A stretch of 64,000 bases of DNA from contig CAMTYL010000003.1 in assembly GCA_947085985.1 (NCBI GenBank), forward strand, positions 15,826 to 79,825, written 5' to 3'. Each line of letters opens with the position of its first letter. The first letter of the stretch is position 1. Below, in pieces: positions 20,076-45,060 of this stretch. Made by a program: the position numbers and the translations under genes. The stretch is from an uncultured bacterium (GTDB taxonomy: Bacteria > Patescibacteriota > Minisyncoccia > Phycocordibacterales > Phycocordibacteraceae). The notes under the pieces were generated by a model. That model did not search any database. It was not told where the DNA came from and saw nothing but the letters and a program-made list of their open reading frames with translations.

Positions 20076-20630
20076 ATGCGTGGTTTCGTGCAACTGTTTG
20101 CGGCCTTCGGTTTCGTCGCCGTCGCGCTTCGCGTCGCCAACGAGTATCTTCCGTTCGCGCTCGCCGGCATCGGCCTGCTCCTCGCTCTCAGGGGTTTCAA
20201 GCTCCTGGGCGAAGAACGCAACAGCCGGGTCTGGAACCTGACGAACTCGGTCAAGCCGGGCGTGGGCCACGACTTCGCGGTCGTGGGTCTGTGCCTGCTT
20301 GCCGCCGGCCTTTCACAGATGAACGTGGACGGCAACTACTGGCTGCTCCTCGCGACGCCGGTCATCGGCCTGCTGGCTGCGACCGCCGCTCTCCAGAAGG
20401 GCGCCAGCCCGTCTGATGTCGTCGTCTGGAGCGAAGTGGTTCGCACCATCTTCGCCTTCATGATCCCGACCATCGCGATGGTGTCGCTGCAGTTCCGCAC
20501 CGAAACTGGCATGGAGCTGCTCGCCGTCTCGGGTGTGCTCATGGCGGCCGCCATGCTTTTCGCAAGCGTGACGGCACCGCGGACCTTCATCCGCATCGCC
20601 AAGCCACGCCTGGTCGACCGGGTCGCCTGA
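20076..20630 (+). CDS. GC-rich multi-TM membrane protein, hypothetical
   Basis: Hydrophobic helices throughout. AAGGGGA SD-like element. GC-rich codon usage unlike neighbours. A terminator follows. Confidence 0.55.
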   Translation: MRGFVQLFAAFGFVAVALRVANEYLPFALAGIGLLLALRGFKLLGEERNSRVWNLTNSVKPGVGHDFAVVGLCLLAAGLSQMNVDGNYWLLLATPVIGLLAATAALQKGASPSDVVVWSEVVRTIFAFMIPTIAMVSLQFRTETGMELLAVSGVLMAAAMLFASVTAPRTFIRIAKPRLVDRVA

Positions 20631-32283: not shown

Positions 32284-32465
32284 TTTTCTCCTCGCAAAAG
32301 CATCTCAGCTACGTCGTTACGGGTCCCTCGCGGGCCCGTTCGTCGTACCACTCATACGCCTCAGGTCCCGCGCTTCCCGTGCCTTGTCCCTGAGCCCTTT
32401 TGCGGGCTTTCCGGCGCTCGCGATGCTTTGCTTAGCAAATACGCTAAAAGCGATATAATAAGCAT

Positions 32466-33074
32466 ATGGACGAAATCGTATACATATTAATAAATGAAGC
32501 GATGCCGGGTTATGTAAAAATAGGTCTGACAAGTGGCTCGCTCGAGGAAAGAATTCGCTCGCTTGATACAACAGGTGTGCCACTTCCTTTTGAATGTTTC
32601 TATGCCGCAAGGGTAAATGATTGTCGGATGGTAGAAAAACTTCTGCACGATACTTTCCTTGATTATCGTGTTCGATCAAATCGCGAGTTCTTTGAAGTTT
32701 CCCCTGAGCGCGTAGTTTCTGCTATAAAGCTTGCCGAAGTTGAGAATGTAACACCGCAACGAGACTTTGTTGAATCAGAAGAAGATCAGAAGGCACTCAA
32801 TCAGGCACGCGAAAAGAGATCTGCTTTTAACTTCGGCATGGTGGATATACCGGTCGGGTCTGAGATTGTTTTTGTGAACGATGAGAATATTCGCGCGAAA
32901 GTCGTTAAATTGAGTGGCAAACGAAGTATCGAATTCAATGGGGAACTAACTAGTCCTTCAACGGCTGCGCAGAAGGTACTTGGCTACCCATACAATGTAC
33001 AGGGAACAGTATATTGGATGTATCAAGGGGAAACATTGGATGAACGTCGTCGCAGGTTGGAAAATCAAGAATAG
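32466..33074 (+). CDS. GIY-YIG/T5orf172 nuclease-family protein with a C-terminal DUF4357-like domain
   Basis: IVYILINEAMPGYVKIGLTS...LEERIRSL...REFFEV (T5orf172 core) and a C-terminal ...TSPSTAAQKVLGYPYNVQGTVYWMYQGETL. TATAAT lies 6 nt upstream of the ATG. AT-richer than the backbone. Confidence 0.75.
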   Translation: MDEIVYILINEAMPGYVKIGLTSGSLEERIRSLDTTGVPLPFECFYAARVNDCRMVEKLLHDTFLDYRVRSNREFFEVSPERVVSAIKLAEVENVTPQRDFVESEEDQKALNQAREKRSAFNFGMVDIPVGSEIVFVNDENIRAKVVKLSGKRSIEFNGELTSPSTAAQKVLGYPYNVQGTVYWMYQGETLDERRRRLENQE

Positions 33075-33984
33075 TTTTGTGGCAGTCGAAAATCTTACAG
33101 GGCTCGAAAAGCCATTACAGAAATTAGTTGAAACCGTCTCCGAAGGAGTTGGGGTTGTTGGGAATCACCTCTTTAAATTTGATGTTGCAAAAATTAAACG
33201 AATTGGAGAAGCAGAAGCAGAGATCGAAAAGGGCAAGATTATTGCACAAGCTGAAGCTCAAGAGAAAGCGGTAGAAATTTTAAGTAGGGCAGAAATAAGA
33301 TTTGCACTAGAGCAATACAACAAACAGATTAATTTAGAGAATATACTAGTTAAATCTAGAGAAGATTTGTCGGAGAAAGAGGTTACTGATGAGGCGGTAG
33401 ATAAGGATTGGACGATGCGATTCTTGGACATTGCCCAGAATGTGAGTCGAGACGAAATGCAGGATGTTCTTGCAAAGATTCTATCTGGAGAGATCCAAAA
33501 ACCAGGTAGTTATTCTTATCAGACTCTAGAGGTCGTTAAATATCTGTCACAGAGAGACTTGGAAAGGTTTTTAAAGTTCGTAGCTCTTTCTACGGAAGTA
33601 GGTGTAATAAAATTACACGGAGGAAGTAGCGAATCGCTTCAAAAATATGGACTGAATTTTGGTGATTACTTAGACTTGTCTTCAATCGGTCTATTTAATC
33701 AATCTTCAATGCTTTCTTATAACATTGAGATGAAACCGGAAGGAAAACATCCAATTAATATCGGCGGAGAATGGTTCATTCTTCAGAACGAAGATAAGGA
33801 GAACAGTAAAAAATTTAATCTTGGACTTTTTGTATTTTCAAATGTAGGTAGGGAAATACGTTCTCTCTTACTCGAGCGAGCGGAAAATGAACATGCGGGA
33901 ATATATAAAACTGATTTTATAGAGGAAACTGAAAAGAAATCCATTAAAGTTACCAAGGCTATATTCAAGACTAAAGAAGTATAG
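33040..33984 (+). CDS. DUF2806-like protein, hypothetical, overlapping the 3' end of the GIY-YIG gene
   Basis: The segment DKDWTMRFLDIAQNVSRDEMQDVLAKILSGEIQKPGSYSYQTLEVVKYL resembles the DUF2806 core (recalled from memory, not searched). Start at ATG 33040 is uncertain and could be 32980. Confidence 0.6.
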   Translation: MNVVAGWKIKNSFVAVENLTGLEKPLQKLVETVSEGVGVVGNHLFKFDVAKIKRIGEAEAEIEKGKIIAQAEAQEKAVEILSRAEIRFALEQYNKQINLENILVKSREDLSEKEVTDEAVDKDWTMRFLDIAQNVSRDEMQDVLAKILSGEIQKPGSYSYQTLEVVKYLSQRDLERFLKFVALSTEVGVIKLHGGSSESLQKYGLNFGDYLDLSSIGLFNQSSMLSYNIEMKPEGKHPINIGGEWFILQNEDKENSKKFNLGLFVFSNVGREIRSLLLERAENEHAGIYKTDFIEETEKKSIKVTKAIFKTKEV

Positions 33985-34185
33985 AAATATGCCGCAGGAG
34001 AGGCGTAGTTAAGTGGGCTCAAAGTAGGAGCCTTTATGCGCCAATATACCCCGCCCGCCGTACACTTACGTCTCCTTCGGCGGACTTCCCGCGCCCAGCG
34101 TCTAGGGCCTTTTTACTTCGCTTGCAGACAGGATCATTTAGGGTTCGCGCCTTCAATTCTGCACACTTGGTATATAATTTAGAAA

Positions 34186-34787
34186 ATGGACAAGAAAGAA
34201 ATTACAAGTCTGCTTGAAAGGCATAAGGCAAAGCGTCCTCGAACTATTGTCGTAGTGGATTTTGGCAACGTAGATAAGTGGAAAGAAAGTCTTGGGTGGA
34301 AGGTCGGTATCCAGGAACTGGCTCAGCTCATCAAGCACTTTTCCTACGGCAAAAGTTTTTACGCAGATTTTATTATGGCGAGGATTACGGGCCAGATGAA
34401 CGCTCCATAAAGCGAACGGTATGGTCGGAAAACATCCTGACCCGTGCACGCATGAATGGATTTGAACTAGTTACAAAAAGAGTCAAATATATCCATAATC
34501 AAGATTACATAACAGGATTTTTAGCCAAGTGTGAACTTGACGTTGAAATGGCCGTTGACCTGATACGAGAAAAGGATAACTACGATTCTGTTTTGCTGCT
34601 CTCAGGTGATGGAGATCTAGTGCCGGTGTTGCAGTATTTAAAACGGTTTCATTCTAAGGAATGTATAGTTATGAGTGCTCGAGGTCACGTGGCTCGTGAA
34701 GTTATAGACGCTAGAGTCTCTGGTATTATCGACGAACTCCTCTTTGCAGAAGACTTTGAATACCGACTCCGAATGCGCGTTTACTAG
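34186..34787 (+). pseudogene. NYN/LabA-like (DUF88) nuclease-domain gene disrupted by a -1 frameshift in an aaaa/ttttt homopolymer near 34380
   Basis: Frame 1 encodes IVVVDFGNVD...KHFSYGKS. Frame 3 continues FLRRFYYGEDYG...LLLSGDGDLVPVLQ. Spliced together they give a canonical NYN domain. Confidence 0.5.
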
Positions 34788-34954
34788 CGCAATCAGAAAC
34801 CCCGCCTTTCAGCGGGGTTTCGATCAAAATCCGGCAAGCCGTTGCTTACATCTGTATTATACAGAGTTTCGATGAATTTTCAATGATATCCACAGAGAAG
34901 CAATTTGACTGCCCTTGATACCTGAATTGACCCGTATGGGCTATTATTAAAGAT

Positions 34955-36865
34955 ATGAAAAAAGCCGGAGGAGGAGAGAAAATCGATGGTTTATCGGCTG
35001 ATGTTCAAGCTGAGCGTTTAGAAGCTTTGCGGCAGGTAGTTCCAGAGGCCTTTTCGGAAGGGCAATTGGACGTGGACAAACTTAAAGCTCTCTTCTCTGA
35101 GGAGGTGCAAGCAGGAGACGAAGAGGGTGAACGTTTTCGTCTTGAATGGGCAGGGAAGCACAAGGTTTTTGATGAAATCGCCAAGAGAACTTCTTGCACA
35201 CTTACTCTTGACCCAGATCGTTCATCTGAAGATTTTGAACAATCGCAAAACGTATTTATTGAAGGTGAAAACTTAGAAGTATTGCGCGCGCTCCAGAAGG
35301 CATATTTCGGGAAGGTGAAGATGATTTACATTGATCCTCCATACAATACGGGAAAGGATTTTGTGTACAACGACGACTTCCGTCAAACAGAAGCTGAGTA
35401 TTGCGAGGATACTTGTAATGTGGACGAGAATGGAAACTTGAAGCGCGCGTACAAACTGAACACTAAGGACTCAGGTCGCTATCATTCAAACTGGCTTTCG
35501 ATGATGTACCCACGTCTGTACCTTGCACGCAACCTTCTCCGTGATGATGGAGTCATTTTCGTTTCCATTGACGATAACGAAGTTCACAACTTGCGCGCAC
35601 TCATGAATGAAGTTTTTGGTGAGGAAAACTTCATCGAGATTTTTTCTTGGCAGAAGACAGAAACCCCACCAAATCTTTCAAAATTAACAAAAAAAAGTGT
35701 CGAATACGTGCTTGCATACAGGAAATCGTACAAACGCAGTACTTTAATGGGACTGAGTAAGAATAGTTCGAGTAGTAATGGTCTAATGAACCAAACTAAT
35801 TCAGAAAAGATACTTACTTTTCCTAAGGATGTCACAGAAACTGCAATAAGTGACGGGATGCTTCCAAAAGGAAGGTACGGAACAGATAGTTATACTATTG
35901 AGTTAATGGAGGACGCAGAAGTCAAAAATGGGAGGTTTGTAACGTCAGTCATTCTTAAGGGGAAGTTTAAATGGTCTCAGGCAAATCTTGAGAGAGAAAT
36001 TTTAGACGGTACGAAGATCTCAATTCGAACTACCTCACTTTCGCCATCATACGAGCGTGAAGAATATGCACCTGAAGCGCCGTGGAATTTAATCGACAGG
36101 GATTTCGGTGTCGGTACTAATGAGGCTGCAAGTGATGAGCTGGATAGTCTTTTTGGTAAGATAGAAATTTTTGACCACCCAAAACCACCTTCATTAATTC
36201 AATACCTCCTTAACTTTCTCAGGGATACTAAAGACGAGGAAGATCTAGTACTTGATTTCTTTTCAGGTTCGGGAACTACTGCTCACGCAGTAATGGCGCA
36301 AAATGCAGTAGATGGAGGTAATCGTCATTACATCTGCGTACAGATGCCTGAACAGACATCTGAAAAGAGCGAGGCACGGAAGGCAGAATTCGCAAAAATC
36401 TCCGATATTGCTATCGAGCGTATCAAGCGCGCCGCAAACAAGATCCGTAGCGAGAAACCAGATTACTCCGGTGACCTTGGTGTGCGTGTTTACTGTGTGA
36501 CTGATTCGAACTTTCCACAATGGCACGCGCGCTCGTTCGACTCTGACTCTGAGCTGGAGGAATCACTCTTTGCGCACGTGGGCCGTGTGGCTGGAGGAGA
36601 CGAGCGTGCACGCGCTACGGAAGTGCTACTGAAGATTGGTCACGACCTAAATACTTCCATTGAGCAGTCTGATGGGTTTTTGCTCGCTGATAGTTCTATT
36701 GCACTTATCCTTCGAGACGATTTTAAAGCGCAGGATTTGAATAAGGTATTCCAAACAAAGCCAAGGATAGTGATAGTACTCGAGCGCATATTTGCTAACG
36801 ACGATGAAAAGATAAACTTCGCACTTCGATGTAAAGAAGAAAAAGTAGTCTTTCAGACCGTGTAA
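34955..36865 (+). CDS. mod: Type III restriction-modification N6-adenine DNA methyltransferase (Mod)
   Basis: The DPPYNTG motif comes before FFSGSGTTAH, which is the beta-class order. 636 aa with a central variable TRD. Confidence 0.85.
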   Translation: MKKAGGGEKIDGLSADVQAERLEALRQVVPEAFSEGQLDVDKLKALFSEEVQAGDEEGERFRLEWAGKHKVFDEIAKRTSCTLTLDPDRSSEDFEQSQNVFIEGENLEVLRALQKAYFGKVKMIYIDPPYNTGKDFVYNDDFRQTEAEYCEDTCNVDENGNLKRAYKLNTKDSGRYHSNWLSMMYPRLYLARNLLRDDGVIFVSIDDNEVHNLRALMNEVFGEENFIEIFSWQKTETPPNLSKLTKKSVEYVLAYRKSYKRSTLMGLSKNSSSSNGLMNQTNSEKILTFPKDVTETAISDGMLPKGRYGTDSYTIELMEDAEVKNGRFVTSVILKGKFKWSQANLEREILDGTKISIRTTSLSPSYEREEYAPEAPWNLIDRDFGVGTNEAASDELDSLFGKIEIFDHPKPPSLIQYLLNFLRDTKDEEDLVLDFFSGSGTTAHAVMAQNAVDGGNRHYICVQMPEQTSEKSEARKAEFAKISDIAIERIKRAANKIRSEKPDYSGDLGVRVYCVTDSNFPQWHARSFDSDSELEESLFAHVGRVAGGDERARATEVLLKIGHDLNTSIEQSDGFLLADSSIALILRDDFKAQDLNKVFQTKPRIVIVLERIFANDDEKINFALRCKEEKVVFQTV

Positions 36866-36866
36866 C

Positions 36867-39524
36867 ATGAAGCTTAAATTCGATGCAGAACAGCAATTTC
36901 AGCTTGATGCAATCGAGTCTGTAGCGGATTTGTTTGTGGGGCAGCAGACCACGTCTGGCGCAGGACTCTTTGGAGAGTCAACACTTGGCATGTTTCAGAA
37001 CGAGCGTGGAATAGGTAATCTGCTCCAGATAGACGAGGGGGCGCTACTCGAGAATTTGAGGAGCGTGCAGGAAAAGAATAAACTCCCAATACAGTCGGAG
37101 CTTGCTGGAAAGCATTTCTCCATAGAAATGGAAACAGGTACAGGTAAGACGTATGTGTACTTGCGTACTATATTTGAACTCCACCAGCGTTTCGGATTTT
37201 CAAAATTTATCATTGTAGTACCAGGCAAGGCTATTCGTGAGGGTGTTTTAAACTCTCTCGAAATCACTAAGGAGCATTTGCGCAACCTGTACGGGAACCC
37301 GCCTTATAGTTTCTTTGCATATAACAGTAAGCGCCCAGCCGACTTGCGAGCATTTGCTACCTCAAATGCGCTTAGTGTGATGCTCATAAATATTGAAGCA
37401 TTTAATACCGAGGACAACATCATAAATCGTGCGAACGACTCGATAGGAGGAGTCCCAATTGAGCTTGTCCAGAAGACGCATCCAATAGTAATTATGGACG
37501 AGCCGCAAAATATGGAATCTCCAGCTGCACAGGCTGCTATTGCAGCACTTAACCCACTTTGTACCCTTCGATACTCTGCTACCCATCGAAATCTCTATAA
37601 TCAAATCTATCGACTTGGGCCTGTGGAGGCATATGATCAGGGTTTGGTAAAAAGAATTGAGGTGGCATCTGTAGCCGAAGAAGGAAGTCAGAACGACGCG
37701 TACATAAAGATACTAGATGTAAAGGCTGGAAAGAGATCAATCGTTGCTAATCTCGAGATAGAATCCAACCACAAGGGTGAGATCAAGAAAACCAAAGTTC
37801 GTTGTTCAACGTCGGGTACAGAATCTGATTTGTATGCATTGTCAGGAAACCTACCCGCTTACGATGGCTACACGCTTAGTCGCATCGATGCAGAATTGGG
37901 CGAGGTGGAGTTTGGTAATGGTGTTGTTGTGTCGAGGAATGCTGCTGTGGGGGAGATGAAGGATGAGATCATGAAGCAGCAAGTAGCGGAGACCGTACGA
38001 GAGCACTTCGAAAAAATGCTCAAGTTTGTAAGGTCTGGGCAGGACATAAAAGTGCTATCGCTCTTTTTCATAGATCGAGTGGCAAATTATCGTAACCATG
38101 AGACAGGTGCGCCAGGGAAGCTCGCCCTGTGGTTTGAAGAGGTGTACGAGGAGTTTAGGCAGTTACCGCGCTACAGTTCGCTCGTACTTCCACCGGTAAG
38201 CTCAGTTCACGACGGCTATTTCTCCAAAGACAAGAAGGGAACACTCAAGGACACGAAAGGAAGTACGGAAGAGGACCGCTCTACATACGAACGCATCATG
38301 AAAGACAAAGAGCGTCTTCTTTCTTCTGATGAACCGCTGCAGTTCATTTTCTCTCACTCTGCGCTGAAAGAGGGCTGGGACAACCCAAACGTCTTTCAAA
38401 TATGTACACTGAACGAAGCAGAATCATATGTAAAGAAGCGTCAGGAAATTGGGCGTGGCTTGCGTCTGCCAGTTAACCAGCAGGGAGATAGGATATTTGA
38501 TCGATCCATAAACACTCTCACAGTCATTGCGAACGAGAGCTATGAAACCTTTGCCCGCTCGCTTCAGCAAGAAATTGAGGAAGAAACTGGACAAGTTTTC
38601 GGAAGAGAGAGAATTGTTGATAAGCGCAAGCGAAAGCAAGTCTCACTTAGAAAGCATTGGGAATTGGATGAACACTTTATCGAGTTGTGGTCGCGAATTA
38701 ATAAGCGAACTAGATATGCGGTTACGCTGGATATGGATTTGTTTCTTGCAAAAGCAACTGAAGCCCTGTCCCATATACCTTCTCAAGAGCCACGTATACG
38801 AGTTGACGTTGCTTCGCTTAATTTTGACCAGAGCAAGGGAATCTTGACCACAAAGAGATCAGAACGAACTGGAAGAAGTTTCGGACAGTCCTTGCCCGTT
38901 CCAGATGTGCTGAGCTATATCTCGCAGCACACAGAACTGCGTACAGCAACAGTGGTCCGTCTACTGAAGGACTCAGATATTTTCGGCAAACTTCGTTCAA
39001 ACCCTCAGTACGTTATGGATCAAGCAGTAGCGGAAATAAAGCGCGTGATGCAATTCATGATTATTGACGGAATTAAGTACGAGCGAATTGCGGATTCTGA
39101 GTACGAGATGCAGATTTTCAAGGACGCAGAAATAGAGTCGTATCTTACTAATATGAGGAAAGTGGAAGTGGTCGAGAAGACTATTTATGACTTTGTGGTC
39201 TGCGATTCTAATGTCGAGATGAGTTTTGCAGAAGAGCTTGAGGCGCGAGACGAGATTGAGTTCTATATGAAGCTACCGTCAAAATTCAAGATAGAAACAC
39301 CGCTAGGCTCTTATAATCCCGACTGGGCTATCATCTTCCGTGGTGATTCCAAGCTGTACTTGGTAGCTGAGACCAAGGGAACAGATCGTGCCGACGAGCT
39401 TTCGATTTCTGAGCAATTGAAGATTAGAGCGAGCGAAAAGCACTTTACTGCAATTGGCGAAGCAATCTACCTGGCTCCTGTGCGCGACATGAGCGGTTTA
39501 TCAGAAAGGTTGAAATCGTTATGA
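36867..39524 (+). CDS. res: Type III restriction endonuclease (Res) with SF2 helicase and PD-(D/E)xK nuclease domains
   Basis: Walker A METGTGKT, motif II VIMDEPQN, and C-terminal YNPDW...VAETKG. Confidence 0.85.
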   Translation: MKLKFDAEQQFQLDAIESVADLFVGQQTTSGAGLFGESTLGMFQNERGIGNLLQIDEGALLENLRSVQEKNKLPIQSELAGKHFSIEMETGTGKTYVYLRTIFELHQRFGFSKFIIVVPGKAIREGVLNSLEITKEHLRNLYGNPPYSFFAYNSKRPADLRAFATSNALSVMLINIEAFNTEDNIINRANDSIGGVPIELVQKTHPIVIMDEPQNMESPAAQAAIAALNPLCTLRYSATHRNLYNQIYRLGPVEAYDQGLVKRIEVASVAEEGSQNDAYIKILDVKAGKRSIVANLEIESNHKGEIKKTKVRCSTSGTESDLYALSGNLPAYDGYTLSRIDAELGEVEFGNGVVVSRNAAVGEMKDEIMKQQVAETVREHFEKMLKFVRSGQDIKVLSLFFIDRVANYRNHETGAPGKLALWFEEVYEEFRQLPRYSSLVLPPVSSVHDGYFSKDKKGTLKDTKGSTEEDRSTYERIMKDKERLLSSDEPLQFIFSHSALKEGWDNPNVFQICTLNEAESYVKKRQEIGRGLRLPVNQQGDRIFDRSINTLTVIANESYETFARSLQQEIEEETGQVFGRERIVDKRKRKQVSLRKHWELDEHFIELWSRINKRTRYAVTLDMDLFLAKATEALSHIPSQEPRIRVDVASLNFDQSKGILTTKRSERTGRSFGQSLPVPDVLSYISQHTELRTATVVRLLKDSDIFGKLRSNPQYVMDQAVAEIKRVMQFMIIDGIKYERIADSEYEMQIFKDAEIESYLTNMRKVEVVEKTIYDFVVCDSNVEMSFAEELEARDEIEFYMKLPSKFKIETPLGSYNPDWAIIFRGDSKLYLVAETKGTDRADELSISEQLKIRASEKHFTAIGEAIYLAPVRDMSGLSERLKSL

Positions 39525-40896: not shown

Positions 40897-41232
40897 AAAC
40901 GAAGGCCGCCCGAGAGGGCGGCCGACAATAGATAACGAGCTGTACGCAGCCTGCTTTTTCGAAGGCAATGTTAGAACCTCCCGAATTCCTGCAGAAAACC
41001 CGGGAAGGTTATCAGCTTCAGCGACTCTGGGGTCTGGATGTTGTGGCGTTTTGCCAGGTAAACCCAGAGACAGACTTCCGCGCTCGTTGCTCCCTTTATG
41101 TTGTTCTTTACTAAAAGCTGTCCTCCTTTCAAAACAGCTCCGGGAGCTCCATGTATAAGTATGCGCCTCGGGCGGTCGTATGCAACACTACACTCGTGTA
41201 TACAATTTCAGCCCCGAGCGGTTGCTCGGGGC

Positions 41233-41270
41233 TGGGTGAAAAGACTGAGGGCCGCGCACAAGATGTACGC
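41233..41270 (-). terminator. hairpin gggccgcg-(11 nt)-cgcggccc plus T-run on the minus strand, first of two identical copies
   Basis: A 36-bp sequence aagactgagggccgcgcacaagatgtacgcggccct repeats at 41768. Confidence 0.5.
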
Positions 41271-41290
41271 GGCCCTGTTGCCACTACTGG

Positions 41291-41668
41291 CTAGCCGGCC
41301 ATGCCGCCCTGCCGCGTCTTCAGCCACCGCAGAAAGTCGGGAACGTTGAAGAGGAGGAACGGAACCAGGCCAGGAACCAGCATGACGATAGCGTTCTGCC
41401 AGTTGACCTCGCTCGACCCCAGGAAGCTGCCTGCGAGCGTTGCCGAGACGAACAGAAGGAAGCCAGTGGCGACGTAACGGGGCCAGAGCCAGCAGACCAG
41501 GCCGATGAGGCCTAACACCACGGTTCCGGCGATGACTTCGTTCATGGCTGTATTCGACATGGTCTGTCGGACGGTCATGAAGAAGAGGAGTGCGGTAAAT
41601 GCGCCGAACGCAACGGCGCGCCACACACGACGCACGCGCATACGCTTCTCGATTTCGGTGTTCGACAT
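41291..41668 (-). CDS. GC-rich multi-TM membrane protein, hypothetical
   Basis: Four hydrophobic helices. Flanked by the duplicated terminator. Confidence 0.5.
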   Translation of the reverse strand: MSNTEIEKRMRVRRVWRAVAFGAFTALLFFMTVRQTMSNTAMNEVIAGTVVLGLIGLVCWLWPRYVATGFLLFVSATLAGSFLGSSEVNWQNAIVMLVPGLVPFLLFNVPDFLRWLKTRQGGMAG

Positions 41669-41767
41669 GATAGGCCTCCTTGGGCCAGAAACTTTGACGA
41701 GCCAATCCCGCCACCCAGAGTGTTATAGCACAATTTGTGGGGAATGCTCGGTTTCCATATATAGAAA

Positions 41768-41805
41768 GACTGAGGGCCGCGCACAAGATGTACGCGGCCC
41801 TTTTA
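41768..41805 (-). terminator. second copy of the same hairpin terminator, 3' of the HD-domain gene
   Basis: Identical 36-mer. Confidence 0.5.
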
Positions 41806-41821
41806 CTGTGCTGGCCCGTTC

Positions 41822-42427
41822 CTACTGGGCCAGAATATTGGTGACGAGCCTGCCCAGCTCTTCAGCGATGCGCTCGTCCGTGTCCCACATGAAGGGCAGG
41901 ATGAACTCGCGCGTCTCCTCGGCCTTCGCCTTCTGACGATCGATGGGCCAGCCCTCGCCCATGGAACGCATATTGCAGATGCGATCCACGCCCTTGGTCA
42001 CCTTCACCTCGAGCGGTCCTCGGGCGATGGCGCCATAGTATTCGGGTTTGGTCTTCACGTTGTAGTCCAGAAGCCTGCCGTTGGCCGGATCGAAGATCGG
42101 GATCTGCTTGGACAGCAAGCAGAGTTCGTCGAAGGTCTCCTGTCCGAGCAGTCGCACGATGACCTCCCGGAGGGCGTAGGTGTCCTCCACAACATCGTGG
42201 GTGAGACCCAGGACGACGGCCTTGCGGCTGTTGTAGCCGTAGTCTAGAAGAAGCCAGGCGACCTCGCGCGGGTGCTCGAAGTAGCGTTCGCCGCTGTCGC
42301 GCGGCGCTTGGACGCGGTGGCCTTCCTTGGCGAGCCAGTAGGCGACCTGGATGTCGGGGAGACTGTCCCTCAGGCCGCACTTCTGAACCCGTTCAAAGAA
42401 CGAAGTCCGGTTAATGACTTGGGTCAT
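41822..42427 (-). CDS. small alarmone hydrolase, a RelA/SpoT-type HD-domain protein
   Basis: HPREVAWLLL...VVLGLTHDVVEDT and KGVDRICNMRSM match SpoT hydrolase motifs. AAGGGGG lies 8 nt upstream of the ATG at 42427. Confidence 0.7.
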   Translation of the reverse strand: MTQVINRTSFFERVQKCGLRDSLPDIQVAYWLAKEGHRVQAPRDSGERYFEHPREVAWLLLDYGYNSRKAVVLGLTHDVVEDTYALREVIVRLLGQETFDELCLLSKQIPIFDPANGRLLDYNVKTKPEYYGAIARGPLEVKVTKGVDRICNMRSMGEGWPIDRQKAKAEETREFILPFMWDTDERIAEELGRLVTNILAQ

Positions 42428-42613
42428 GTGAATGTCCCCCTTTCTGTACGCACTTAAACACAAATAGATAAACGAGTCAAACCGAGAGAGTTGAAAAATG
42501 TTCTGGCGATACAGGAGTGATAGAAAGGCGAGAGCCGGGCTGGAGAATTGCCAAGGCGTCGCCTTGGCATGATGTGGAATACGAGGAGATACGGTCTTGT
42601 ATACTAAATCTGT

Positions 42614-43588
42614 ATGGCAAAGAAGAGCGTTCCAAAAAAGACCCTGAACCAGGTACTTATATATCAGGCAAAGAACGGAGCTATTGAGCTACGTGGTGAT
42701 TCTGCGCATGACACTCTTTGGGCTACCCAGGCGCAAATTGCTGAACTCTTCAATATTGAGCGTTCGGTGGCCACGAAGCATATCGGTTCCATTCTGAAGA
42801 CCCGGGAGGTAGATGAGAAAAGCAATGTGCAAAAAATGCACATTGCAAATTCTGATAAACCTGTTGCAGTTTATTCGCTCGATGTGATCCTCTCTGTAGG
42901 TTATCGATCAAACTCCGCTCGAGCTATAGATTTTAGGCGATGGGCTAGCAGAACACTTCGTGAATACCTCGTGAAGGGCTACACCATAAACCGCAAGCAG
43001 ATTGCGAAGAATCGGGAAGCTTTCCTTAAGGACGTCGAGTCTGTCCAGGCGCTTCTTCCCGAGCACATTGCGCTTGATCCGAAGGCAATACTTGAGCTTG
43101 TGAAGGTGTTCTCTAGTACCTGGATGTCACTCGATGCCTACGACAAGGATGCACTCGTTCCCGTTGGAACTTCCAAGAAGGCAATCAAGCTCAGTAGTAC
43201 TGAGTTGAACGCAGCGATAGGTAATCTACGCACCGAACTTCTAAAGAAAGGTGAGGCCACAGAGATATTCGCTCAAGAGCGTGCCACAGGCAATATTGAA
43301 GGAATAGTAGGAAACGTCATGCAGTCGCTTGGCGGGGCTCCGGTGTATCCAACTATTGAGGAGAAGGCTGCGCACCTGCTGTACTTCATGGTGAAGAACC
43401 ATCCGTTTGTGGACGGCAATAAGCGCTCGGGAGCATTCGCCTTTATCTGGTTTCTGCGAAAGACGGGAAGCAGGTCTGTAAAGAATATCAATCCAGCAGC
43501 ACTCACTGCACTCACGCTACTGATAGCCGAAAGCAAGTCAGAGAAAAAAGAGCAAATGACCGCACTCGTTACGCAGGTTCTGAGATAG
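42614..43588 (+). CDS. RhuM-like N-terminal domain fused to a Doc-type Fic domain
   Basis: The N-terminus (LIYQAKNGAIELRGDSAHDTLWATQAQIAELF) resembles RhuM. The C-terminal HPFVDGNKRSGA is the Doc variant (GNKR) of the Fic HxFx(D/E)GNGR motif. Confidence 0.8.
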   Translation: MAKKSVPKKTLNQVLIYQAKNGAIELRGDSAHDTLWATQAQIAELFNIERSVATKHIGSILKTREVDEKSNVQKMHIANSDKPVAVYSLDVILSVGYRSNSARAIDFRRWASRTLREYLVKGYTINRKQIAKNREAFLKDVESVQALLPEHIALDPKAILELVKVFSSTWMSLDAYDKDALVPVGTSKKAIKLSSTELNAAIGNLRTELLKKGEATEIFAQERATGNIEGIVGNVMQSLGGAPVYPTIEEKAAHLLYFMVKNHPFVDGNKRSGAFAFIWFLRKTGSRSVKNINPAALTALTLLIAESKSEKKEQMTALVTQVLR

Positions 43589-43661
43589 CGCACAGAGCAA
43601 TATGCCGAAAAACCGCCAGCGCTGCCTAGGGCGACTTTGCAGGACTCCTTTCAAAACCCGT

Positions 43662-43700
43662 TATATAAAAGAAAGTGGCGGCCCGGGGAGGCCGCCACTG
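43662..43700. terminator. hairpin agtggcggcc-cgggga-ggccgccact with a T-rich flank on the minus strand
   Basis: 10-bp perfect stem between convergent genes. Confidence 0.5.
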
Positions 43701-43725
43701 CATTCGTTTGTAGAGCCGACTGGCT

Positions 43726-44013
43726 CTACTCCTTTACGCCCCTCAGGATGTCGAGGCCGATTTCGAGCTTGTGGACGACGTATCCACGTTTGTTCTTGTC
43801 GCCTTCGAGGTTGTGAGCGACCGACCGCATGATGTTCTCGAGCGCGTAGCGATCGGGAGCGGCGGCGCCTGAAGAGGGCAGTGCGAGCGTCATCTGAAGC
43901 GCGTGCGCCATAGCCGCGAGCCGCAGGCGGAGCTCTTCCGGAGGTCCGTCCTCGAGTTCGCGAACATAGCGATCACGACGATCAAGAAAAGCGCGCGTAG
44001 CGAATACCGACAT
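43726..44013 (-). CDS. hypothetical protein (95 aa)
   Basis: ORF with a terminator downstream. GC-rich. No recognisable motif. Confidence 0.4.
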   Translation of the reverse strand: MSVFATRAFLDRRDRYVRELEDGPPEELRLRLAAMAHALQMTLALPSSGAAAPDRYALENIMRSVAHNLEGDKNKRGYVVHKLEIGLDILRGVKE

Positions 44014-44070
44014 CTCTGTCTCCTTGTTGGAACTGGTTCACAAACACAATAACACTTATCTATACAAAAG

Positions 44071-44526
44071 TCAAGTAGTGATCTCCTCGAAATGCTCAGA
44101 AGCGACTGGAGTAATAGAAAGACGAGAGCCGGGCTGGAGAATGACCATGCTTTTCAGTTTTGGATTTGCGCGAATGTCGGTGAGGGTGACGGGCTCCTTC
44201 AACTTCTTAACAAAAGCGATATCTACCAAATACCAGACCGGTTTCTCTTTTGTGGCGCGAGGCTCGTAGTAGTCGGAGGTTGCATCAAATTGAGTTGGGT
44301 CAGGGTAGGGAGCTGAAGCGACTTTGGCGATGCCGTATACGCCCGGTACTTTGCAGCTGGAGTGGTAGAAAAGCACCTGGTCGCCAACCCGCATTTCGTC
44401 GCGCATGTAGTTGCGGGCCAAGAAATTGCGCACGCCAGTCCAGGCGGTTTTCTTGTCCGCCTTGAAATGGTCTATCCCGTATGTCTCGGGCTCCGACTTC
44501 ATAAGCCAGTACTTTTTCTCTTTCAT
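44071..44526 (-). CDS. EVE (PUA-like) domain protein
   Basis: YWLMKSEP...VRNFLARNYMRDEMRVGDQVLFYHS is the typical EVE/DUF55 core. Confidence 0.8.
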   Translation of the reverse strand: MKEKKYWLMKSEPETYGIDHFKADKKTAWTGVRNFLARNYMRDEMRVGDQVLFYHSSCKVPGVYGIAKVASAPYPDPTQFDATSDYYEPRATKEKPVWYLVDIAFVKKLKEPVTLTDIRANPKLKSMVILQPGSRLSITPVASEHFEEITT

Positions 44527-44620: not shown

Positions 44621-45013
44621 GTGAGGGAAAACCTAATCAACATCAACTGGACGGCCGCTCCGCTCTCCGGGGAGCAACGGATGGTCATCCACCAGCTCGC
44701 GGTTATCTTCCTGAAAACGAGGGGAGAGCGGGACTGGATCGACTTCACCCATATGCTGGTGGAAGGACGACTGCATAAGGGACGCCGAGGTTCACTCGGC
44801 ACCTATTCGGGAACCTTCTTCACCGCTGAGATGGGCTACGTTCGGGGAATTCCCTGGACCCTCCATTTCCTTCTTCCGAACAGTGCTGTGAACGCGCAAC
44901 TTCGGGAAGGCGACACCTACCTCAGCGCTATCTGGCACTCTGATGGACGAATGGAGTTCACGCAGATTGATCCTGACAGTTGCAAGGCCACCGAGGCTTC
45001 GCTCCTGAGCTGA
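44621..45013 (+). CDS. hypothetical protein (130 aa), GTG start
   Basis: AAGGAG lies 7 nt upstream of the GTG. A strong terminator follows immediately. Confidence 0.5.
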   Translation: MRENLININWTAAPLSGEQRMVIHQLAVIFLKTRGERDWIDFTHMLVEGRLHKGRRGSLGTYSGTFFTAEMGYVRGIPWTLHFLLPNSAVNAQLREGDTYLSAIWHSDGRMEFTQIDPDSCKATEASLLS

Positions 45014-45060
45014 AGACCCCGACCCCGATGCTGCACGCAGCATCGGGGTCTTGTCTATTT
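45014..45060 (+). terminator. terminator: gaccccgatgctg-cacg-cagcatcggggtc followed by ttgtctatttc
   Basis: 13-bp perfect stem plus T-rich tract. Confidence 0.65.

Follow-up and report, generated by a model that had tools for sequence, protein, structure and literature searches.

The stretch of 64,000 nucleotides analysed here (the window), from contig CAMTYL010000003.1 of an uncultured Patescibacteria bacterium, contains a group of genes encoding a protein with a RhuM-like N-terminal module and a Doc-type Fic domain (the Fic protein), a small alarmone hydrolase (SAH), a stand-alone EVE protein and the 95-residue product of an open reading frame (ORF), orf95. An earlier, sequence-only reading regarded them as a coherent stress/toxin cluster. 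The four ORFs are present where they had been placed and their domain calls are genuine. On the contrary, the coherence of the cluster is not borne out: the hydrolase, Fic, orf95 and EVE genes are predicted from the sequence to be separate transcription units, each with its own terminator, and they assort independently among relatives. The region is probably a variable, defence-island-like hotspot carrying a stand-alone RhuM-N/Doc-type Fic gene, and not a co-functioning stress/toxin operon. The Fic protein itself would, on balance, be a self-contained sensor or regulator joined to a Doc-type kinase, acting on a translation factor as analogy with Doc suggests, and would be controlled in cis without an antitoxin.

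Profile searches bear out the two-part architecture that had been proposed for the Fic protein, both Pfam models scoring above their cutoffs. The RhuM model (PF13310) gave 63.9 bits (cutoff 33.7), only profile positions 9-69 of 252 being aligned; as judged from this alignment, the protein is a partial member of that family, sharing its N-terminal part only. The Fic model (PF02661) gave 45.4 bits (cutoff 24), which places the protein in the Fic/DOC superfamily. The RhuM-N module spans residues 1 to ~207 and is followed by the Doc-type Fic domain at residues ~208-324. An end-to-end hidden Markov model match was also obtained for the PADLOC family PDC-S23 (E=2.9e-100; residues 12-323 of the protein against 5-323 of 327 in the profile), and NCBI names the family 'virulence protein RhuM/Fic/DOC family protein'; from these matches, the protein is taken to be a full member of this annotated family. 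Its first ~135-207 residues match in addition many PDC-S05 models whose total lengths differ, indicating that this RhuM-N module is found in proteins that differ in size.

Doc-type proteins have the motif HxFx(D/N)(A/G)NKR in place of HxFx(D/E)GNGRxxR. The active-site motif of the Fic protein, HPFVDGNKRSGA, has K for the G of GNGR and lacks the final R, as in P1 Doc, and it is invariant in the 34 homologs of the family alignment. Doc proteins were the only solved structures matched by sequence, HPFVDGNKRSGA aligning to their HxFxxANKR, and a PHROG family described as 'Doc-like toxin' was matched with E=1e-15. The claim that the motif is of the Doc (kinase) variant is thus upheld. The domain would work as a protein kinase and not as an AMPylase and, by analogy with P1 Doc, would phosphorylate a translation factor such as EF-Tu. 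The RhuM-N module in the same polypeptide would hold the kinase in check, as sensor or regulator, without a separate antitoxin.

This module, of ~200 residues, would bear an exchangeable segment resembling a helix-turn-helix. Residues 39-106 (window 42728-42931), which make up its helix-turn-helix-like part and show a weak Ant-like PHROG match, are mosaic: they are only 38-41% identical to homologs that are 87-96% identical elsewhere, and 84-88% identical to otherwise more distant ones. Such a mosaic points to segment exchange within the family, and its pattern fits an exchangeable recognition segment. A candidate for the inhibitory helix of class II/III Fic proteins, (S/T)xxxE(G/N), was also considered: TGNIEG at residues 225-230 fits by eye, but its S/T is not conserved in the family and the stretch aligns to the N-terminal helix of Doc, for which it was dropped as evidence.

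Over 7,800 homologs (E<1e-10) make up the family to which the protein belongs, sharing ~70% identity across Patescibacteria classes and a near-constant length. Neighbouring genes were surveyed at the Fic loci of 80 other species, labelled as Patescibacteria or as one of a few other phyla; matching metagenome-assembled genomes (MAGs) do carry labels of other phyla, these bin labels being unreliable. The genes on either side of the Fic homolog differ in length and orientation from locus to locus, and no Pfam family was matched by more than 3 of the 133 proteins that they encode. At 4 of the 80 loci an EVE gene occurs within 6 kb of the Fic homolog; neither the hydrolase nor orf95 was found at any of them (0/80 each). 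Type I restriction-modification (R-M) or AbiEii neighbours occur at some loci, and the majority show no R-M gene directly beside Fic. Since no neighbour is conserved in the 80 genomes, no antitoxin is apparent. This agrees with the original statement that a Phd-like antitoxin is missing, as none was matched when the ORFs of the region were scanned with the Pfam, NCBIfam, PADLOC and PHROG libraries. The antitoxin of a Phd/Doc pair is small, co-directional, directly upstream and co-conserved; here, the genes upstream of Fic are a divergent hydrolase and a relic of the EVE gene, and the sole small ORF is convergent. A type II module of the Phd/Doc kind was consequently ruled out, because the Fic protein lacks a partner.

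The related contigs L017 (4206-5081) and L018 encode a second Fic-domain protein, of 291 residues and devoid of RhuM, two genes upstream of RhuM-Fic, and close homologs of it are encoded near RhuM-Fic in L023, L042 and L097. These two Fic proteins may represent a recurrent pairing.

Independent assortment is seen when gene orders are compared. The Fic gene is accompanied by NUDIX instead of the hydrolase in L015, L017 and L019, while EVE and the hydrolase occur without Fic in L101-L104. The order is NUDIX(-), Fic(+), an unrelated 134-aa ORF and EVE(-) in L017; NUDIX(-), Fic(+) and EVE(-), with nothing between the last two, in L019; and NUDIX and Fic, no EVE being seen, in L015/L016. EVE is followed by SAH in L101, by a 153-aa ORF and SAH in L103, and by five genes and SAH in L104, and L102 shows the EVE 3' end, the membrane gene and SAH. 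Across these four contigs the hydrolase has EVE, membrane protein and methyltransferase genes as neighbours. The hydrolase and EVE are probably syntenic neighbours of a particular lineage (EVE then SAH in L101), their adjacency to Fic being incidental. More widely, the interval from rpoD to an LCAT-like gene differs among relatives, with different R-M or methyltransferase genes, as is typical of a defence-island-like hotspot. This synteny check in related genomes agrees with the suggestion that the region was reshaped by gene flux.

The change at this locus can be followed against L101, a 410-kb metagenome contig and the closest relative available (92.9% nucleotide identity over dnaG-rpoD). 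There, EVE is separated by 50 nt from the hydrolase gene, after which come the membrane gene, a conserved non-coding segment and DUF1905, and the locus has neither Fic nor orf95. Two blastn blocks (Table 1), together with a three-way alignment in which the L101 EVE tracks the window EVE up to a shared core and the relic thereafter, delimit a presence/absence segment of 1,556 bp (window 42549-44104). At its edges stands a 38-nt direct repeat (42511-42548 / 44105-44142), and within it lie the Fic gene, orf95, a bidirectional terminator between these two and the final 34 nt of the EVE gene.

The repeat is part of a longer one, D1, of 58 nt and 81% identity (42496-42553 against 44090-44147; none expected by chance), which reflects a second, displaced EVE 3' end. 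The minus strand of the relic encodes ...ILQPGSRLSITPVSPEHFSTLSV-stop, that is, the EVE C-terminus with its stop in register. The conserved block shows six synonymous changes between relic and resident EVE end, indicating that the relic diverged as coding sequence. It adjoins the hydrolase, 50 nt upstream of its ATG, as in L101, and sits inside the block 95.1% identical to L101, which takes in the 3' end of the L101 EVE. The duplication of the EVE 3' end must have arisen by insertion at some point, to judge by these alignments, and recombination between both copies can delete the segment with Fic and orf95. An integrase-mediated element placed in a gene 3' end, which would bring its own integrase or recombinase, was considered and discarded: repeats are present, but Fic and orf95 are the only genes in the 1,556-bp segment. 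Regarding the order of events, the view that Fic-EVE came first and that the hydrolase block entered later, upstream of Fic, is slightly favoured because (i) the non-coding segment and Fic are contiguous in L015/L016 and window 41174-42597 interrupts them, (ii) Fic and EVE are similarly diverged from L017/L019 (74-78% and 75-77% nucleotide identity, respectively), and (iii) both genes carry backbone-like signals.

Table 1. Features of the region in window coordinates, with the blocks shared with L101 (SD, Shine-Dalgarno sequence; GC3, GC content at third codon positions).
Feature	Position	Strand	Remarks
blastn block shared with L101	40605-42548		L101 9823-7880, 95.1%
Membrane protein gene	41291-41668	-	125 aa; SD AAGGAGG; GC3 0.80; accompanies hydrolase in L101 and L102
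Terminator hairpin 3' of hydrolase	41765-41804	-	39/40 nt (98%) as in membrane-gene terminator
Small alarmone hydrolase-like gene (SAH)	41822-42427	-	HD domain only; 201 aa; SD-led; GC3 0.83
Relic EVE 3' end	42477-42553	-	Direct repeat with resident EVE
Presence/absence segment	42549-44104		1,556 bp; absent from L101; from blastn breakpoints, three-way alignment and L101 gene order
RhuM-N + Doc-type Fic gene	42614-43588	+	324 aa; matches in Pfam, NCBIfam, PADLOC, PHROG and to PDB Doc structures
Fic active-site motif HPFVDGNKRSGA	43400-43435	+	Residues 263-274; Doc variant
Bidirectional terminator hairpin	43674-43699		Between convergent Fic and orf95
orf95	43726-44013	-	SD-led; GC3 0.70; four-helix bundle; rare family
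Stand-alone EVE gene	44071-44526	-	151 aa; THYN1/PSPTO5229-like; backbone-like composition; kept in relatives
blastn block shared with L101	44105-45013		L101 7917-7009, 91.4%
orf130	44621-45013	+	SD-led; GC3 0.69; no family match; divergent from EVE; terminator at 45021-45050; also in L101

The small ORF next to Fic had been put forward as the only candidate antitoxin, and both genes could in principle form a new two-gene toxin-antitoxin or defence pair, a 1.6-kb cassette in which orf95 neutralises the Doc-type domain. They are adjacent and lie inside the indel relative to L101, no other antitoxin candidate exists, and orf95 is a real, conserved protein of a rare family, modelled with confidence as four helices. 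Nonetheless, both genes are convergent with a bidirectional terminator between them, and their composition and translation signals differ (GC3 0.70 with an SD for orf95, 0.52 without SD for Fic). At the corresponding position the nearest Fic relatives have nothing (L019) or the 134-aa ORF, unrelated to orf95 (L017), and orf95 is absent beside every other Fic homolog examined, its family having ~18 representatives versus thousands for Fic. The predicted fold is a generic four-helix bundle without structural match to known antitoxins. A locus search with a reduced orf95-family alignment returned a single 1.2-kb metagenome fragment without informative neighbour. Beyond adjacency and the shared indel there is no support for an antitoxin role of orf95, and such a pair is improbable. 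Still less credible is that all four genes form one stress module, in which the Doc-type toxin arrests translation, SAH resets the alarmone and EVE reads modified nucleic acid as trigger. The genes are close together, Doc and (p)ppGpp both act on translation and growth control, and Jimmy et al. (2020) are said to have described SAHs as antitoxins of toxSAS systems. However, the genes have separate terminators and assort independently, EVE and SAH being adjacent without Fic in L101, no alarmone synthetase was found among the ORFs scanned around the region with Pfam and NCBIfam, as a toxSAS system would need, and no family-wide link of Fic to EVE or to SAH exists. Synteny largely refutes this idea.

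A different possibility is that the RhuM-N/Doc-type Fic protein is neither toxin nor defence factor but a regulator with a housekeeping role in Patescibacteria, such as a kinase bound to DNA that tunes translation or transcription. Its identity of ~70% across classes and near-constant length, its backbone-like codon usage, a leaderless-type promoter box conserved in relatives, the lack of an antitoxin and the similar divergence of Fic and EVE from L017 and L019, compatible with vertical descent, are in line with this proposal. On the contrary, the gene is absent from L101 at this locus, its genomic contexts are varied, including type I R-M and AbiEii, and here it lies within a variable, R-M-rich interval, PADLOC listing the family as a defence candidate. 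Its N-terminal segment is in addition mosaic, as for a recognition module under diversifying exchange, and the MAG labels of other phyla, unreliable as they are, suggest horizontal spread. A housekeeping role thus appears possible, though doubtful. With regard to the stand-alone sensor-kinase in a variable hotspot, several observations weigh against it: (i) neither the Fic protein of the window nor PDC-S23 has a known activity, toxicity or defence phenotype, (ii) the NCBIfam Doc model TIGR01550 (DOC_P1) scored 34.2 bits, below its cutoff of 38.65, (iii) the AlphaFold2 model of the Fic protein, built on the 34-sequence alignment, had a pLDDT of 48 and was unusable, making intramolecular inhibition a matter of pure inference, (iv) the very high conservation could equally mean a housekeeping regulatory role, (v) the indel is either a gain in the window or a loss in L101, and (vi) Fic and orf95 were gained or lost as one block, leaving some room for a functional link. 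In a more ambitious picture, RhuM-N/Doc-type Fic proteins would be self-contained, antitoxin-free sensor-kinase immunity factors, especially common in Patescibacteria, which would swap their helix-turn-helix-like residues 39-106 to change sensing. In this lineage, the conserved EVE 3' end plus its short spacer would serve as an integrase-free landing and excision site for the shuffling of Fic and of small cassettes with an SD and a terminator (orf95, SAH and the membrane gene). As a whole, this is unlikely.

Comparison with known systems helps to situate the stand-alone Fic protein. P1 Doc (PDB 3k33, 3dd7; also the Doc-family structure 9vzc) shares the minimal segment of the Fic fold and the motif of the kinase variant, without second Arg, the alignment covering ~50-70 residues around the motif. 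Unlike P1 Doc, the window protein has ~200 residues of RhuM-N fused at its N-terminus, no Phd gene or operon partner, and a score under the DOC_P1 cutoff. By its described architecture it is also similar to BifA of Streptococcus equi subsp. zooepidemicus, with a RhuM domain at the N-terminus and a Fic domain at the C-terminus, which needs its Fic histidine, promotes phosphorylation of a target and is reported to be secreted and to act as a virulence factor on host moesin (PMC6529018); on the contrary, the window organism belongs to environmental Patescibacteria. No paper naming PDC-S23 was found in the literature library searched, and BifA, the one characterised RhuM-N+Fic protein found there, was the only relevant report on RhuM/PDC-S23 function. 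With PDC-S23 the window protein shares the end-to-end match, the single-gene state and a variable interval containing R-M genes, and with PDC-S05 the N-terminal match only; both are candidate phage-defence families, and the examples examined here come mostly from Patescibacteria and mostly lack an immediate R-M neighbour.

The hydrolase has the single ~200-aa HD hydrolase domain of Mesh1-type SAHs and toxSAS antitoxins; it differs from toxSAS in having no adjacent synthetase toxin and in being consistently accompanied, within this lineage, by the gene of a stand-alone EVE protein. The EVE protein, like THYN1 and PSPTO5229, consists of a single EVE domain in 151 residues, neither fused to nor adjoining a nuclease or McrBC. 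In the EVE survey of Bell et al. 2020 (PMC7641849), 'Fic', 'ppGpp' and 'Nudix' are not mentioned and 'Doc' occurs once. The finding is thus largely ordinary, the neighbouring hydrolase and EVE not being partners of Fic, with an indel that is unusually well resolved. If the Fic protein does stand alone, it would represent a further Doc-type Fic kinase without separate antitoxin, from a group of tiny genomes with poorly known immunity. The relic and the indel also offer a natural pair with and without the genes (window and L101) for testing gene role, and the juxtaposition of toxin-like, alarmone and modified-base-reader genes would be a by-product of a recombination hotspot and not a pathway.

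The identities of both flanking proteins, as first proposed, were confirmed. The EVE protein matched Pfam EVE (PF01878) with 188.4 bits over positions 1-143 of 145, as a single-domain architecture, its closest solved homologs being PDB 2ar1, 2eve and 5j3e (E=1e-37). Its stand-alone, THYN1-like nature and its presence near so few Fic homologs do not favour the suggested role as a reader partner of R-M type. The hydrolase passed the HD_4 cutoff (31.1 bits, cutoff 27.2) and, in RelA/SpoT models, its alignment was confined to the N-terminal half with the hydrolase, covering just positions 1-143 of TIGR00691. The catalytic motifs H..HDxxED..DRxxN of Rel/SpoT hydrolases are kept, alignment with Rel structures showing hP, HDvvED and DRicNmR. 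Hydrolase motifs of the HD type, a length of 201 residues and the absence of a synthetase domain are the sequence traits of small alarmone hydrolases. Its family is small, with 9 clusters. The gene most likely starts at the ATG at 42427, preceded by the SD AAAGGGGGA, rather than at the TTG at 42463, because gene calls of the public contigs use the former start and its upstream SD is conserved in relatives.

The proposal of a GC-rich island was not sustained. The 1-kb windows of 41-45 kb have GC values of 0.52-0.58, within the range of the backbone (mostly 0.50-0.60; whole window, 0.525), and the apparent contrast is due to the GC-poor flanks, namely 33-39 kb, which holds a type III R-M system (0.375-0.46), and 45-47 kb (0.45-0.47). 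The related claim that the genes use SD sites, unlike the backbone, holds in part. Analysed gene by gene, it is correct for the hydrolase, the membrane gene, orf95 and orf130, with canonical SDs and high GC3 (0.69-0.83), and incorrect for Fic and EVE (GC3 of 0.52 and 0.63, respectively), where no SD is found and a TATACT-like box stands a few bases before the ATG. For Fic this box, TGTATACT, ends 8 nt before the start codon. The signals of Fic and EVE resemble those of backbone genes, such as rpoB, rpoC and SMC, and the box without SD suggests leaderless or near-leaderless mRNAs.

Two such gene classes are observed across the window, L017, L019 and L101-L104, and the split persists in diverged relatives. 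The majority class, including Fic, EVE and genes on the rpoB side, has no SD and a TATACT-like box ending ~6-14 nt before the ATG, and its mRNAs may be leaderless. SAH, the membrane gene, orf95, orf130, the NUDIX gene of relatives and window 20076-20630 (GC3 0.84, without family match) form the minority class, with GC3 of 0.7-0.87 and a canonical SD. Both classes recur in relatives even where the hydrolase shows 55% protein identity. Since these traits are kept in such diverged relatives, the signature is not simply a mark of recent import, and the equation of SD plus high GC3 with recent horizontal transfer was discarded as a simple reading. The SAH block is also as close to L101 (95% identity) as the housekeeping genes are (93%).

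Repeated hairpins were noticed around the hydrolase. The 40-nt terminators of the membrane gene (41240-41279) and of the hydrolase share 98% identity and the same 29-nt hairpin core. L101 has both, and the order of membrane gene and SAH is swapped in L102, as if shuffled by recombination between 40-nt hairpins. In L015 and L017, genes are flanked by hairpins of a similar kind, GGCCGCCC...GGGCGGCC. Short-read assemblies of the organism (Logan contigs L001-L004 and L014) break at window ~41772, which falls in the repeated 40-nt terminator, so that these breaks are assembly artefacts and not strain variation.

Elsewhere in the window, a complete type III R-M system (mod 34955-36865, res 36867-39524) occupies a low-GC block (32300-39524; 0.375-0.46) that comes directly after rpoD and overlaps with the first part of a gene for an S49 peptidase; other methyltransferases take its place in relatives. 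No tRNA, tmRNA or Rfam match was obtained in the window at gathering thresholds. A candidate non-coding RNA, for which no Rfam family was matched, corresponds to a segment of ~270 nt on the minus strand (40897-41175) that is conserved in nucleotide sequence: its identity to L015/L016 is 83%, with long unchanged stretches, and that to L101 nearly complete. Single-base indels break every reading frame, the segment ends in a terminator hairpin (40923-40904), and its folding z-score is -2.5. In L015/L016 this segment lies directly upstream of Fic, on the opposite strand.

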